A DNA stretch of 21,023 bases from Chlamydiia bacterium (GTDB lineage: Bacteria; Chlamydiota; Chlamydiia; Chlamydiales; Parachlamydiaceae): positions 1-21,023 of the forward strand of contig JBBSJT010000032.1 in assembly GCA_038257035.1 (NCBI GenBank). The letters run 5' to 3'. Below are positions 1,877 to 15,965 of this stretch, in pieces. The notes below the pieces were generated by a model, which saw nothing but the letters and a program-made list of their open reading frames with translations, was not told where the DNA came from and did not search any database. A program made the translations under genes and the position numbers. Position 1 is the stretch's first letter. Every line of letters begins with the position of its first letter.

Positions 1877-1905
1877 CGCGGAATCTTCACTGTAATTATT
1901 ACCAT

Positions 1906-1934
1906 TTGCAGAGGAAATGCTAATTTGCTATAAT
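1906..1934 (+). promoter_or_regulatory. Putative sigma70/sigma66 promoter of ssrA
   Basis: TTGCAG (1906-1911), 17-nt spacer, TATAAT (1929-1934) with an extended -10 TG, 14 nt before the tmRNA 5' end. Confidence 0.7.
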
Positions 1935-1948
1935 GAAGGTGTATCTAT

Positions 1949-2359
1949 GGGGGTGTCAAGGTTTCGACTGGGGAACGAACCATTAGTTGCATGCAGAGGA
2001 TTTCGGTTGGCCTCTTTAATCATCCGATAAAAAAACAAATGCTAACAAAAATAGCAAACTTGTTGCCGTTAACTTTGCTCCTGCAGCAATGGCTAACGCA
2101 GCATAAGTGACTTTGGGACCTAACGGTCCCGGTTGCGTGGCAGCCTGTAAGTGGACCTAGGCTTTTCAGGATCTGCCATAATCGACTAGGTATGGTTTGG
2201 TACCCGAGCTTCTAGGGAATCAAGTCAAGATTAAATGAAGACCGTTAACTTCAGTGACCGTGTTCTGCATAGGGGTTAATTAAACAAAATAGAACACTAA
2301 GCATGTAGTGGCTAGTATGTAGTTTGCTTAGGACGAGAGTTCGATTCTCTCCACCTCCA
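1949..2359 (+). ncRNA. ssrA: tmRNA (one-piece); tag peptide ANKNSKLVAVNFAPAAMANAA encoded at 2041-2106
   Basis: 5' end GGGGGTGTCAAGGTTTCGAC; T-arm GAGAGTTCGATTCTCTC; acceptor strand CACCTCC plus discriminator A, giving the G3-U alanine determinant. The tag ORF resumes at GCT and ends in AA-stop. CCA is not encoded. Confidence 0.96.
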
Positions 2360-2513
2360 AATTTTACTGTTATATAACGCAAAAGGCCCATATAGGGTCC
2401 AGATTTTAGTCATCGTGACGAAGGTAAACCTCATGGTTTATCAAGGAGCGATGATCTAAAAGATGGGCCTTATATGGGCCTTTTGCGTCTATAAAAGTAA
2501 GATTTGGAGGTGG
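2351..2513 (+). repeat. Long imperfect palindromic repeat, copy A (163 bp), overlapping the last 9 nt of tmRNA
   Basis: Left arm CCACCTCCAAATTTTACTGTTATATAACGCAAAAGGCCCATATAGGGTCCAGATTTTAGTCATCG pairs with right arm CGATGATCTAAAAGATGGGCCTTATATGGGCCTTTTGCGTCTATAAAAGTAAGATTTGGAGGTGG. Apical hairpin TAAACC-TCAT-GGTTTA. Confidence 0.93.
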
Positions 2514-2514
2514 G

Positions 2515-2686
2515 ACCTCCAAACGTTAGTTTTATATAACGCAAAAGGCTTAGTATTTTGCTCGAGATTTGTCAGCACGACGAAGATAAACCTTATGGTT
2601 TGTCGAGGAGAGATGATCTAAAAGATGGGTAGAATACGGGTTTTTTGCGTCTATAAAAGTAACTTTTGGAGGTGGGAACCTCCAAA
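2515..2686 (+). repeat. Long imperfect palindromic repeat, copy B, plus the first ~9 nt of a third copy
   Basis: ACCTCCAAA recurs at 2353, 2515 and 2678 (periods 162 and 163). The arms and apical hairpin match copy A, with a diverged mid-stem. Confidence 0.9.
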
Positions 2687-2688
2687 AA

Positions 2689-2729
2689 AAACAAAAAGCT
2701 TCGTTTTAGGGCTGAAGCTTTTTTTGTTT
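2689..2729 (+). terminator. Intrinsic terminator-like hairpin closing the ssrA-plus-repeat unit
   Basis: AAAAAGCTTC (2693-2702) pairs with GAAGCTTTTT (2714-2723) and is followed by a T-rich tail. The A-tract on the other side makes it possibly bidirectional. Confidence 0.7.
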
Positions 2730-2949
2730 AGTGACTTATACACCATAAATCTTAAAAGCTCTAGTTTGGAAAGCTAATTTAAGAACTAGACTGGATGAAA
2801 CTACAGTAAAACTCTCTTTGTTTTTGAGATTTTTATGCTATACTATCGTGATGGAATCAATTTGAAAATGAATTTATAAAATGGATTAGAGAGTTGCATG
2901 GACTCTAGGACCTGGAACGTCAATCCTGTAACGTCAATAAGGATAATAA

Positions 2950-3919: not shown

Positions 3920-5641
3920 TTAAGTCCATTCATGCTTGCTTAATAATGTAAGAATCTTTTCTTTTTCTTCATCATTCAATAAAAGGGTATGAATGCCATG
4001 AACAGCTAATGCACCTGGCAAATGACCTTGCTTATTTCTAATATTTCTGTCTGCACCTAGTTTAAGTAAAAGTTCTATAAGTTCAATATTACCGGCGCCT
4101 ACAGCTGTATGTAATGCAGTGTTGCCCTCTTCATCTTGAATATTAAGATTAGCTCCATATTTTATTAATGCCAATGCAGCATTTTTACTTTTTTCTAAAC
4201 CTTCCGCCACATAATGCAAGGGTGTTTTTCCATCAATATCTTGCATATTTACGGATGCTCCGCCCTCAAGGAGCGCTATAATGATTTCATTCATTTGGTT
4301 GTCATTTTCTGTAGCAACTTTCTCTGCTGCATAGTGTAATGCTGTTTTGCTGGAAAGATCAAGGATATCAATGATGCAATTTGCTTCAATGAGCTTCTTT
4401 ACAATCATTAAAGAAGATTTTTTTCCTCTTTCAATTGCAGTATGCAGAGCTGTCTGCCCTTTTTTATCCTGAATATTTACTCCAATTTTTTCCGTTACAA
4501 GTAGATCAATTCTTTGTAAATCTTGGGTATTATTTGCATACTGAACCGCAGAGTGTAATAAAGTTTTTCCATCAAAATTGCGAAAATTTATATTTTCTGC
4601 TTTTTTCAAGAGTAATTTTAATGACTCCATTGATATCTTTTGCGACTCAAATGCCTTATGTAGAATCGAATTTTCCTTTTTTTCTTCAATAATATTGGGG
4701 TTAGCTCCGACTTCAACCAAACCTTCTATAGCCTCATTAGCTCCTCGAAGACAAGCCCAATAAAGAATTGGATGGTGCCAATAATTGGAATTGGGATCAG
4801 CTCCATACTCAACTAAGAGTCTGATTGATTCTTTTGAATTTGTGATAACCGAAATCATAAGAAGAAGAGGACTGATGTTATCAAGTTTTGGCAATATATT
4901 TTTAACAAAAGCTATTTGTTCGATACTTAAAGCTACCTTAAGCATTTCTTCAATTCTTTTCTGCTCTTTTATTTTACTCTCATCATCAAAAACAGGCTCT
5001 AGTTGATGACCTTGAAGCATGGCCTCAAGAAGTTCAATTTTATATTTTTTTACCTCTAAATGAAGGGCTGCTTGCTGATCAACTCTTGAATAAGCATTAA
5101 GCGAGATGGCATTGGAAGCAATCATACTCACTTTTTCAAATAAAGATTTATTATCCCAAGAGAGTTCATATTGCCCTAATTCATCAAGTTTTGCTTCGAT
5201 TTTACTTTGTATGAAATTTATTTTTTTTATAGTTTTATCTTTCCAGACTGCGGTTGTGTAATGTGAATGATTTATTGAAACCATTAAGGAATTTTTACTA
5301 GTTATTCTAAATTTATCTTCATCTGTGAAATCTTTGGATAAATTTTGCTTAACTAACTCCTTGATCGAATCTACTGAAAGAAATTTGGAATCAATGTTTA
5401 AATTTTCTTCCTCGGTATTTATTACTGTCGCATACAATTTTTTTAGTGTAATCGGTGTATTCAAATCAAGTTGACTTAATCTAATTTTAGCATCCTGAAT
5501 ACTGGATGAATCTGCCATATAACCTTCTACAGATAACTTAAAATTTTTTCCATCTATAATAAAATTGCCCCCCTCTTTTGTTTCCAAAAGCCGAACTTCA
5601 TACCAACATTGATCACCTTTTAAAGTAATATCAAAATTCAT
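3920..5641 (-). CDS. Ankyrin-repeat protein with an uncharacterised N-terminal half; putative host-directed effector
   Basis: Multiple ankyrin motifs in the C-terminal half (GKTLLHSA, GQTALHTA, SKTALHYA, GKTPLHYV, GNTALHTA; GA(D/N)xN turns). GAGG RBS. The effector role is inference. Confidence 0.9.
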   Translation of the reverse strand: MNFDITLKGDQCWYEVRLLETKEGGNFIIDGKNFKLSVEGYMADSSSIQDAKIRLSQLDLNTPITLKKLYATVINTEEENLNIDSKFLSVDSIKELVKQNLSKDFTDEDKFRITSKNSLMVSINHSHYTTAVWKDKTIKKINFIQSKIEAKLDELGQYELSWDNKSLFEKVSMIASNAISLNAYSRVDQQAALHLEVKKYKIELLEAMLQGHQLEPVFDDESKIKEQKRIEEMLKVALSIEQIAFVKNILPKLDNISPLLLMISVITNSKESIRLLVEYGADPNSNYWHHPILYWACLRGANEAIEGLVEVGANPNIIEEKKENSILHKAFESQKISMESLKLLLKKAENINFRNFDGKTLLHSAVQYANNTQDLQRIDLLVTEKIGVNIQDKKGQTALHTAIERGKKSSLMIVKKLIEANCIIDILDLSSKTALHYAAEKVATENDNQMNEIIIALLEGGASVNMQDIDGKTPLHYVAEGLEKSKNAALALIKYGANLNIQDEEGNTALHTAVGAGNIELIELLLKLGADRNIRNKQGHLPGALAVHGIHTLLLNDEEKEKILTLLSKHEWT

Positions 5642-7340: not shown

Positions 7341-7376
7341 GAACCAAAAGAAGGCAGGAATAAAAAATGTAACGAT

Positions 7377-7531
7377 CAGATTTTTTTCATCGTTAAGAAG
7401 GTAAACCTAATGGTTTATTGAGGAGCGATGATCTAAAAGATGGACCTTATATGGGCCTTTTGCGTCTATAAAAGTAAGATTTGGAGGTGGGACCTCCAAG
7501 CATTAATTTTATATAACGCGCAAGACCGTAT
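7377..7531 (+). repeat. Dispersed copy of the tmRNA-linked palindromic repeat (5'-truncated A-type unit plus the left arm of the next unit)
   Basis: GGAGCGATGATCTAAAAGATGGACCTTATATGGGCCTTTTGCGTCTATAAAAGTAAGATTTGGAGGTGGGACCTCCAA has one mismatch to 2445-2522. Confidence 0.93.
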
Positions 7532-7625
7532 CCCCAAAAATCGTAAAAGCCTATCACTTTGGATAAGCTTTTTGATTTGATAGGGGTTATTCTCTTTCAA
7601 AGCTTACTTTAGAAATGGATGCTTT

Positions 7626-8966: not shown

Positions 8967-9231
8967 CTTTCTCCTAAAAAATTCGCAAGATTTAAAATAA
9001 CCGAACCATACTTGGCCTTAGCTTGAGCCTCTTATTGCTATTATAACTCTGGCATTTTTCGATTATTTATTCACCTTATTTATAGGTTCTACAGTCGCTT
9101 ATTTCACAAATCTCAAACGGTGTCTGCGAGGCAAAGAAATAAATCTCTGACCGAAATCTTCAAATATTAATTCTAAAGGTATTACAGGTGATAACATCTC
9201 TTGTAAAGGCCTGAAAAGAATCGATCGTTGG

Positions 9232-9439
9232 AGTTTTTTTTATAAAATATAAAAGGCCCGTATACTGTCCAGATTTTTGTCATCACGACGAAGATAAACC
9301 TTATGTTTGTCGAGGAGAGATGATCTAAAAGATGGGTAGAATACGGGTTTTTTGCATCTATAAAAGTAATTTTTTTTTTTGGGGGGGGGTGGGAACCTCC
9401 AAGCATTAGTTTTATGTAACGTAAAAAAGACCCGTATTT
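9232..9439 (+). repeat. Dispersed copy of the tmRNA-linked palindromic repeat (B-type unit plus the left arm of the next unit)
   Basis: CACGACGAAGATAAACCTTATG-TTTGTCGAGGAGAGATGATCTAAAAGATGGGTAGAATACGGGTTTTTTGCATCTATAAAAGTAA is nearly identical to 2576-2662. The junction is altered to T11-G9-TGGGAACCTCCAA. Confidence 0.92.
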
Positions 9440-9463
9440 GGCTGGTGATTTTCTCCTTAAATC

Positions 9464-12735: not shown

Positions 12736-12945
12736 AAGTTATAGCAAGTTATAATGGGTTATAACCAGTTATAACAGAAAATCGATATAACTAGCTATAA
12801 CTTTGTATAAGTTCGAGAAAATTGGATTTATCCGAGAGAAGAAATTCAACAAAAAGAATGAAAACGAAAAAGTTATATATTTATAATAGGTTATAACCAG
12901 TTATAACGAAAACTTGATATAACCCATTATAACTTGCTATAACTT
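12736..12945. repeat. Phased GTTATAAC-type repeat array bounded by perfect 28-bp inverted repeats
   Basis: AAGTTATAGCAAGTTATAATGGGTTATA (12736-12763) is the exact reverse complement of 12918-12945. TATAA-type cores recur every 10 bp. Confidence 0.9.
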
Positions 12946-12948
12946 GAG

Positions 12949-15680: not shown

Positions 15681-15853
15681 TGTTGCGATTCGATAAATAA
15701 CAACACTTAACCTAATTTTAATGTGGCGATTAAATAATTGCAACACATAAACCTGATTTAATGTTGTGATTCTGTAAATTACAACAGTAAAAACTGTTTT
15801 AATGTTGTGATTCGTCCAATCGCAACAAATAAACCTGTTTTAATGTTGCGATT
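15681..15853. repeat. Tandem array of 4 full plus 1 partial ~41-bp units, each with a TGTTGCGATT-N4/5-AATYRCAACA palindrome
   Basis: Units start at 15681, 15722, 15762, 15803 and 15844 (periods 41, 40, 41, 41). The linker is approximately NNTAAACCTG(A/T)TTTAA. Confidence 0.92.
15715..15743 (-). promoter_or_regulatory. Putative sigma70-type promoter of the fic gene embedded in the repeat array
   Basis: Minus strand TTGCAA (15743-15738), 17-nt spacer, TAAAAT (15720-15715). Confidence 0.55.
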
Positions 15854-15965
15854 AATCGACCCAATTGATCCAATTGTTTCTTTGGAGTAGAGCAGTATAT
15901 AAAAATATTGAAAAATTAAACCGTTAAGGCTATCACTGATTTTTTACTACTATTTTATTGGATGT

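Follow-up and report, generated by a model that had tools for sequence, protein, structure and literature searches.

Imperfect palindromes of 100–170 nt that are non-coding, intergenic and present in many copies are known from several groups of bacteria, among them the Correia elements of Neisseria, the enterobacterial repetitive intergenic consensus sequences or intergenic repeat units (ERIC/IRU) and the Rickettsia palindromic elements (RPEs); they carry short flanking duplications, are often co-transcribed with their neighbors and are mobilized in trans by the transposases of insertion sequences (IS). Genomic islands integrate into the 3' ends of transfer-messenger RNA (tmRNA, ssrA) genes, and the 3' trailers of tRNA and tmRNA, also termed 3' external transcribed spacers, give rise to small RNAs. 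The attC sites of integrons are defined by R''/R' core boxes (RYYYAAC ... GTTRRRY) and by L boxes at the base of a hairpin. In this study, we describe two long tandem hairpins, designated units A and B, which lie directly behind the tmRNA gene in a 21,023-nt stretch (hereafter, the window) of the draft genome (2.37 Mb, 210 contigs) of a Chlamydiia bacterium of the Parachlamydiaceae (assembly GCA_038257035.1, contig JBBSJT010000032.1, positions 1 to 21,023 of the forward strand). We show that pairing in these hairpins is maintained on the plus strand, and that their conserved module is a stretch of about 60–90 nt at the apex which belongs to a large family. Moreover, we propose with moderate confidence that A and B represent tandem copies of a non-autonomous foldback element. 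In this proposal, the element, which resembles a miniature inverted-repeat transposable element (MITE), inserts at the end of the tmRNA gene, and its plus strand acts as tmRNA 3'-trailer RNA.

Hairpin units between the tmRNA gene and its terminator

The repeated region extends from 2353 to 2686, where Tandem Repeats Finder detected 2.1 copies of a 162-nt period with 81% matches. A repeat search resolved three pairs of arms in it, 2351–2374 with 2490–2513 (92% complementary), 2377–2409 with 2456–2488 (88%) and 2515–2536 with 2652–2673 (91%). Each unit is one long imperfect palindrome, and the outermost arm of unit A is the tmRNA end itself. An initial, sequence-only reading of this DNA had recognized the hairpin copies, which are real, but the stems it quoted were too short, as the pairing reaches out to the last bases of the tmRNA; what it overlooked is the mobile foldback family anchored on the tmRNA end.

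A unit is made up of the 9-nt tmRNA end, ACCTCCAAA, and a body of about 150 nt. The final 11 nt of this body (TTTGGAGGTGG) are inversely complementary to the tmRNA end, the target of the unit. The hairpin is therefore closed by the last bases of the tmRNA itself, 9–11 of which are used in the outer stem, and each junction between units is a palindrome, TTTGGAGGT-GGG-ACCTCCAAA, with perfect 9-3-9 symmetry. The tmRNA gene does not encode the CCA and ends in CCACCTCCA, which supplies the acceptor stem with its 3' strand and includes the discriminator. The long hairpins are devoid of intrinsic-terminator features (a short stem rich in G+C and a U run behind it), and a separate terminator lies at 2687–2729; the small junction hairpin at 2503–2523 scores as terminator-like. 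Open reading frames (ORFs) over the hairpin copies are short and unconserved. A small ORF starting behind AGGAG was considered and rejected, as AGGAG and ATG are spaced by 12–16 nt and conservation between copies is lacking in the downstream frames.

Together, A and B (2 × 162 nt) form a clean 324-nt insert that separates the tmRNA's mature 3' end from the conserved chlamydial terminator. The sequence past the third ACCTCCAAA aligns with the sequence that follows the tmRNA end in seven other Chlamydiales loci and with the end of the array in G066 (labels of the form G### and L### denote sampled genomes and loci, G000 being the window's own genome). In at least 16 of 80 loci and in G095, G113, G070 and G051, no more than about 10 nt separate the tmRNA end from the conserved terminator hairpin, which has the tail TTTTGTTTTTAGTGACATAC. 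In the window, this terminator block comes after unit B and the alignment is colinear from the third ACCTCCA, which, with the three copies of ACCTCCAAA, indicates that A and B are an insertion between the tmRNA end and its own terminator. ACCTCCA also comes after 14 of the 15 tmRNA-linked arrays examined. As expected of an integrative element that targets tmRNA, the insert sits at the 3' end of the gene, the tmRNA is kept intact, and the gene end is directly repeated beyond. The repeats of ACCTCCAAA around A and B fit a target-site duplication; duplication of an att core by a site-specific recombinase would look alike. If the units are excised one by one, the resulting circles would join TTTGGAGGTGGG to ACCTCCAAA-TTTTACTG.

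The position of the hairpins recurs in relatives. A covariance model (CM) built from seven full-length copies (R1), with compensatory changes in 33 of the 65 pairs of its alignment, matched 29 of 150 genomes sampled from the order. ARAGORN placed a tmRNA directly upstream, on the same strand and with a 9-nt overlap with the hairpin start, in 13 of 27 best-hit loci, and also in the window and in G002; this exact position on the tmRNA end recurs in at least 15 genomes of many families. Copies are located at contig ends in G002, G018, G008 and G058, indicating that the repeats break assemblies, and in one public DNA run that contains the window's own organism, the contigs break at the hairpin repeats.

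A conserved apical core paired on the plus strand

On the plus strand, the RNA of unit A forms one hairpin of 70 pairs at −106.4 kcal/mol (z −17.9), compared with −84.2 on the minus strand, and unit B reaches −66.3 (z −9.0) and −41.2, respectively. With DNA parameters, the plus and minus values are −56.4 and −50.8 for unit A and −31.0 and −24.6 for unit B. The minimum free energy (MFE) folds contain 5 G-U pairs in A and 9 in B, and no A-C 1×1 mismatch in either, in agreement with the sequence-only reading, in which most non-Watson-Crick positions are G-T on the plus strand. Copy B is weakened, and its inner part is unformed in the MFE fold. Over 54 collected copies, 307 G-U pairs stand against 23 A-C 1×1 mismatches, and the plus strand is the more stable one in every one of the 54 copies when RNA parameters are used and in 53 of them with DNA parameters. 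This comparison is partly circular, as in most copies it was the better model score that defined the plus strand. In tmRNA-linked copies, the direction of the tmRNA provides an independent orientation, and the strand outcome is the same.

The irregularities that the sequence-only reading had listed are present in unit A. They comprise a 2×1 loop of UA 2375–2376 against C2489, a lower tandem GA/GA loop (G2402 A2403 opposite G2462 A2463), an upper GA/GA loop (G2417 A2418 opposite G2446 A2447), the bulged U2455, and a purine GAA/AA loop beneath the GGUAAACC/GGUUUAUC apical stem; each of the two G.A loops is a symmetric 2×2 loop. When R1 matched away from tmRNA genes, it found the same apical part on wholly different basal stems. 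The shared core combines a GAA/RA loop and a capped 8-bp stem with two tandem G.A/A.G loops, which are spaced by roughly one helical turn.

The evidence for selection on the folded plus strand comes from this strand asymmetry and from the alignment A2, which holds the central 90 nt of 38 copies, near-duplicates and badly centered ones among the 54 having been dropped. RNAalifold predicted 32 pairs in it, 30 of which show compensatory changes, and with 38 diverse sequences the family represents a well-supported new structured motif. Paired cells amount to 87.8%, compared with 61.0% in shuffled alignments and 40.6–52.6% with slid partners; the covariation score is 0.722 versus 0.223 in shuffles and was reached by none of 500 shuffles. 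The lower GA/GA loop is intact in 33 of the 38 sequences and the upper one in 27, and the G at column 38 is invariant, so that the conservation foreseen for these loops held, whereas that of the bulged T did not, as its position has an extra base in 13 of 38 (C in 9, T in 3, A in 1) and varies freely. The purine loops read GA on both sides, which are not complements of each other; a protein site on double-stranded DNA therefore fails as an explanation. The long basal stem varies freely provided that pairing is kept, and the inner stems differ among subfamilies yet remain paired. Thus, the claim of the sequence-only reading that selection acts on the fold rather than on the sequence stands as to the fold, but not as to freedom of sequence, since the apical stretch of about 60 nt is also conserved in sequence across two phyla. 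A kink-turn of the type bound by L7Ae was rejected, because the G.A loops are symmetric 2×2 loops without a 3-nt bulge and PF01248 is present in 1 of 151 genomes of the phylum, which is not the window's own.

The distribution of the core was determined with a second covariance model (R2), with at most 28 candidates scored per genome. It matched 52 of 151 genomes of the window's phylum, including 0 of 27 in family f35 of that sample (genomes of 1.0–1.2 Mb), 6 of 101 genomes in the acidobacterial sample, and 0 of 101 in a third phylum; a second sample of the window's phylum, which is not independent of the first, gave 39 of 121. The copy number reaches at least 28 in G244, at least 25 in G077 and at least 23 in G058. 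The acidobacterial hairpins are about 106 nt long and have the same core motifs (L208 1501–1590, L209 1501–1591 on the minus strand, and L210 1501–1591). CAGAU, AGAUG and the stems are kept in all three of their alignments, and GACGNAG and AGGAG are unchanged in two, the third having one substitution in each. Their contexts are unrelated, one being located between RecA-like (ImuA-like) and ImuB-like genes and another between an aminotransferase and a cytochrome c gene. The former has a degenerate second copy just upstream.

None of this is represented in the collections that were searched. In the window region, the tmRNA alone passes the gathering score in Rfam 15; an E-value scan of 2300–2800 gave, at E ≤ 0.01 over the hairpins, plant microRNA-precursor models far below their cut-offs, and the weaker rows (E 0.2–6) belong to various other small-RNA models. 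The acidobacterial loci have no Rfam match at E ≤ 0.1, and nothing similar was found in plasmid and phage collections (blastn, E ≤ 1e-3). Full-text literature searches and passages of the genome paper PMC2878342, which counts only repeats longer than 200 bp, gave no description of these repeats.

A BLAST search of the window's own genome revealed two more partial copies on the same strand, 7377–7519 and 9238–9374, and none elsewhere at that sensitivity. These correspond to copies C and D of Table 1, whose breakpoints are unlike each other. With R2, the genome has five core matches, four of which are inside the window, and the fifth lies on the minus strand at G000:C21:16727-16815 (L228, 65.9 bits). 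The flank of L228 resembles the TTAA-flanked subfamily of G095 and G084. At 9370–9396, inside the 3' end of copy D, a long run of T and then one of G take the place of the TTTGGAGGTGG of other copies, and slippage or an assembly problem is possible there.

Table 1. Positions of the tmRNA gene, its signals and the hairpin copies within the window
Feature	Position	Strand	Details
Sigma-70-like promoter of the tmRNA gene, TTTGCA-18-TATAAT with TG	1905..1934	+	15 nt 5' of tmRNA start
tmRNA gene	1949..2359	+	ARAGORN; Rfam RF00023, 155.9 bits
Hairpin unit A	2351..2513	+	CM R1 173.2 bits; outer stem is tmRNA end CCACCTCCAAA paired with TTTGGAGGTGG
Direct repeat ACCTCCAAA, copy 1	2353..2361	+	Equals tmRNA gene end
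Apical core of A	2388..2477	+	CM R2 89.5 bits; two tandem G.A loops, GAA/AA loop, 8-bp capped stem
Hairpin unit B	2513..2675	+	CM R1 135.6 bits; weakened copy
Direct repeat ACCTCCAAA, copy 2	2515..2523	+	Junction palindrome with 2503-2511
Apical core of B	2550..2639	+	CM R2 58.8 bits
Direct repeat ACCTCCAAA, copy 3	2678..2686	+	Colinearity with post-tmRNA sequence of other Chlamydiales starts here
Conserved tmRNA terminator and conserved tail GTTTAGTGAC	2687..2736	+	Stem 2687-2702/2714-2729, T run
Partial copy C	7365..7535	+	Core and 3' arm of one unit, junction, first ~45 nt of next unit
Copy D	9222..9440	+	Outer 5' arm degenerate, poly-T/poly-G run in 3' end; plus 5' arm of next unit

Two further repeats were observed in the window. 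A 41-nt tandem repeat (4.3 copies, 73% matches; Tandem Repeats Finder) occupies 15681–15855 in the gap before an HlyD/ABC transporter operon, and 10-nt repeats of iteron-like look, AAGTTATAAC (×4.1) and TATAACTTGC (×1.9), lie at 12736–12776 and 12928–12946 between AAA ATPase and GNAT genes.

Mobility of the core and islets at the tmRNA end

The core is carried by several kinds of non-autonomous elements. Its subfamilies bear the ends of different transposons on unrelated basal stems, and the end borne in the window is that of the tmRNA. The ends of the GTACG subfamily read GTACGTCCTTAAAAAGTTATGGC; flanking duplications are present in four of the five copies examined (8 bp in two, imperfect and of about 7–8 bp in two), and ends of this type are paired at least 12 times in G085. 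A 1.2-kb element of G157 that contains the remnant of an IS66-family transposase (PF03050, 29.2 bits) is enclosed by near-matching ends (at most 2 mismatches to a 20-nt pattern). Derivation of the core from the subterminal ends of an IS66-like element was rejected, as the IS copy is without the core (best R2 score inside it 8 bits with filters off). Other subfamilies have TTAA or TA flanks. Two short GTACG copies in G085 (102–104 nt) lack the apical 59 nt, and their differing junctions indicate independent deletions and not empty sites; the idea that the core was inserted into pre-existing short hairpins is therefore unsupported for the GTACG type. The high-copy genome G058 (L237–L246) has a repeated unit of about 200 nt in at least 23 copies, in which two small hairpins come first, the core hairpin third, and a terminator-like hairpin last. 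This unit adjoins a palindromic site, CTTGTAAAGC-G-GCTTTACAAG.

Such elements might be regarded as selfish palindromic repeats without any function of the folded strand, their complementarity deriving from an inverted-repeat origin and their G-U pairs from strand-biased deamination or from a few master copies. The hallmarks of MITEs are present, no orientation bias exists relative to neighboring genes, and copies decay or suffer internal deletion, as seen in B, in D, and in the two independent losses of the apical 59 nt in G085. We nevertheless regard this explanation as unlikely, since known strand biases fall far short of the 13:1 excess of G-U over A-C in at least 10 subfamilies, since GA on both loop strands, in 33 of 38 sequences and across two phyla, is not explained by a double-stranded site, and since inner stems that differ between subfamilies have kept their pairing.

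Different things integrate at the tmRNA end, to which the hairpin subfamily described here is tied. In relatives, this site is occupied by small gene islets that are without an integrase. In G113, G070, G095 and G051, the hairpin is on the strand of the tmRNA and 3.1–4.0 kb farther downstream, and in G095, G113 and G070 it is preceded by a 14–23-nt copy of the tmRNA end, the tmRNA itself being followed by the terminator. The stretches between encode AbiE toxin–antitoxin pairs, a YhcG-type nuclease, Toprim-like, NUDIX, GNAT and TetR proteins and a flavin enzyme, and no integrase. In G066, a RhuM gene is located between a seven-unit array and an exact second copy of unit 1, before which stand 14 nt of the tmRNA end. 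Units 2–6 of this array (L053 2332–3571) are 179-nt hybrids whose 5' arm is that of unit 7 and whose 3' arm is that of unit 1, the product expected from unequal crossing-over between conserved apices. A different type of hairpin, of 48–57 nt, follows the tmRNA in L058, L064, L092, L094, L103, L131, L132 and L134, where CCACCTCCAA pairs with TTGGAGGTG around a terminator-like G+C stem. One contig has three tmRNA-end copies 2.3–3.4 kb apart, two of them with a 48–57-nt hairpin. We also noted recurrent island ends at the tmRNA site, the left end reading CCACCTCCAATTGGTTGGAT...ATCCAATC and the right end AAAAGTTCTGA(N5-7)TCTCT followed by CCACCTCCA (L093, L099, L106, L112 and L116; L053 3575–3620; L031, L039 and L053 4730–4765).

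The arrangement of hairpins and cargo raises the question of whether they are single-stranded DNA (ssDNA) recombination sites, comparable to attC or to the folded attP of CTX phage, that stack cassettes behind the tmRNA, with the folded plus strand being the substrate of a recombinase encoded elsewhere. Same-strand copies are indeed interspersed with accessory genes behind the tmRNA, at 2351, 2513, 7365 and 9222 in the window and at 4861, 7050, 9126, 10709 and 15736 in G168. The cargo is cassette-like (Fic, HTH, RhuM, AbiE, YhcG nuclease, GNAT, NUDIX, ankyrin and SDR proteins) in stretches that hold no integrase; the strand asymmetry, which persists with DNA parameters, the conserved unpaired purines and the perfect 9-3-9 junction palindrome would suit such sites; and of the five matches to the tyrosine recombinase family (PF00589) in the window's own genome, all on other contigs, four are intact ORFs. 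This explanation is quite unlikely in our view. The R and L boxes of attC are missing, no integrase lies beside any array examined, the breakpoints of C and D differ, and dispersed single copies of the same core have target duplications and ends of the transposon type. On the chromosome of G244, the strands of the copies show, in small numbers, no replication-related pattern, which weighs against a mechanism based on ssDNA at the replication fork. Y1 HUH transposases (PF01797) do not track the hairpins either. They are present in 61 of 150 genomes, 28 of which also have the core (21 expected by chance), with 24 genomes having the core alone and 33 the transposase alone, and the high-copy G058 has no PF01797. 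The window's own genome has nine matches to the Y1 (IS200-type) family over several contigs, none of them in the window. A relationship to repetitive extragenic palindromic (REP) sequences and their associated tyrosine transposases (RAYT) was rejected, given units of about 160 nt versus REP hairpins of 20–40 nt and no tie to a Y1 transposase.

A dedicated role of the hairpins in tmRNA biogenesis, with a 3' trailer that controls processing, or terminates transcription, by pairing with the acceptor 3' strand, is very unlikely, for although their exact position recurs in many families, their outer stem uses the acceptor 3' strand and eight other loci have the 48–57-nt hairpins, most sampled Chlamydiales are without them, at least 16 of 80 loci have a plain terminator straight after the tmRNA, four genomes (G095, G113, G070 and G051) have the hairpin 3–4 kb away with the terminator after the tmRNA, and the core is also found far from tmRNA genes and in Acidobacteriota.

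We therefore return to the proposal of a mobile foldback element whose plus strand is used as trailer RNA. Units A and B lie inside the tmRNA transcription unit, with a promoter-like site before the tmRNA and the terminator after unit B, a context which favors RNA. The plus strand would be made here as the 3' trailer of the tmRNA precursor, from the promoter at 1905–1934 to the terminator at 2687–2729, and the module would act as an RNA structure, a very stable hairpin probably recognized by a protein or an RNase. The hairpin would be cut off from the tmRNA, and may end or insulate the transcript. Placement of the units at the tmRNA end would be achieved by recombination, with an integrase or transposase supplied in trans, and the partial copies C and D may represent the remains of earlier units that were split by later insertions of accessory genes.

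Several points weigh against this proposal. Apart from the partial circularity of the strand comparison mentioned above, the preference of DNA parameters for the plus strand (53 of 54 copies) leaves room for an ssDNA form. Dispersed copies, assessed at 44 loci with crude ORF calls, are sense in 9, antisense in 12 and uninformative in 23 relative to co-directional flanking ORFs, and this lack of orientation preference is hard to square with read-through RNA at those loci. Public RNA runs match the tmRNAs of relatives alone, in contigs that end at 2350–2360, short of the hairpins. The tmRNA works without an adjoining hairpin in G095, G113, G070 and G051, so that no role in tmRNA maturation is needed. 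There is no integrase or transposase in the window, where none of the 17 ORFs scanned matches PF00589, and no full-length IS with tmRNA-type ends was seen for the tmRNA-end subfamily in a search that was not exhaustive. Finally, with only five core copies, four of them in this window, the organism's own genome offers no evidence of recent mobility.

A broader idea, which we put forward as doubtful, is that the apex is a new and widespread structured module of Chlamydiota and Acidobacteriota that has been acquired repeatedly by unrelated mobile elements, is recognized as a folded single strand by a protein of the host or the element, and marks the tmRNA end as a landing pad for integrase-less defense and accessory islets, a form of cassette accretion unlike that of integrons. 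The non-coding elements of environmental chlamydiae are poorly charted, and at the tmRNA locus the hairpins provide a precise marker for the addition of accessory and defense islets behind an essential RNA gene. If the element acts as RNA, it would be released from the tmRNA precursor and be a candidate for binding by a protein or an RNase; if it acts as ssDNA, it would point to an undescribed recombination system.

Comparison with described systems

The sequence-only reading had suggested structured non-coding RNAs or attC sites as possible parallels. The hairpins share with attC a strand-specific fold of a single strand, conserved unpaired bases, a variable sequence in which pairing is kept, and same-orientation copies between accessory genes. 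They differ in that R''/L''-L'/R' boxes and an IntI/attI system are absent, in that the units are longer (about 160 nt), in that the conserved part is at the apex instead of the base, and in that dispersed copies have transposon-type target duplications; the conserved unpaired bases form tandem G.A loops and are not single flipped-out bases. The assignment to integron attC was thus rejected, as the window has no integron integrase and the stem bases, which read CCACCTCCAAA/TTTGGAGGTGG and TATATAACGC/GCGTCTATA, contain no R or L boxes when compared with the consensus sequence.

The 3' external transcribed spacers resemble units A and B in being structured RNA, predicted in our case, that lies behind the mature 3' end of a stable RNA and ahead of the terminator. 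The hairpins are repeated and mobile and occur away from tmRNA genes as well. As in ssrA islands, the insert sits at the 3' end of the gene, the gene is complete, a short copy of its end is found beyond, and tandem accretion takes place. Unlike those islands, the unit is of 162 nt and non-coding, the repeat is of 7–9 nt, no integrase is at hand, and the far end is inversely complementary to the target, so that the insert folds back onto the gene end.

With regard to MITEs, the units have terminal inverted repeats, no coding capacity and a size below about 300 bp, and target-site duplications are represented by the three copies of ACCTCCAAA around A and B and by the flank duplications of the GTACG subfamily. 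The likeness to Correia, ERIC and RPE sequences is that of a foldback repeat of the MITE type. It is the apex and not the termini that is conserved here, however, and the same apex is found on unrelated ends (IS66-like, TA- or TTAA-flanked, and the tmRNA end), with two conserved tandem G.A loops and a strong excess of G-U on one strand, in two phyla. A conserved apex with free termini across two phyla is an unusual layout for a mobile repeat. In its workings, the family as a whole is like a MITE or foldback repeat, and the tmRNA subfamily is also like a miniature integrative element.

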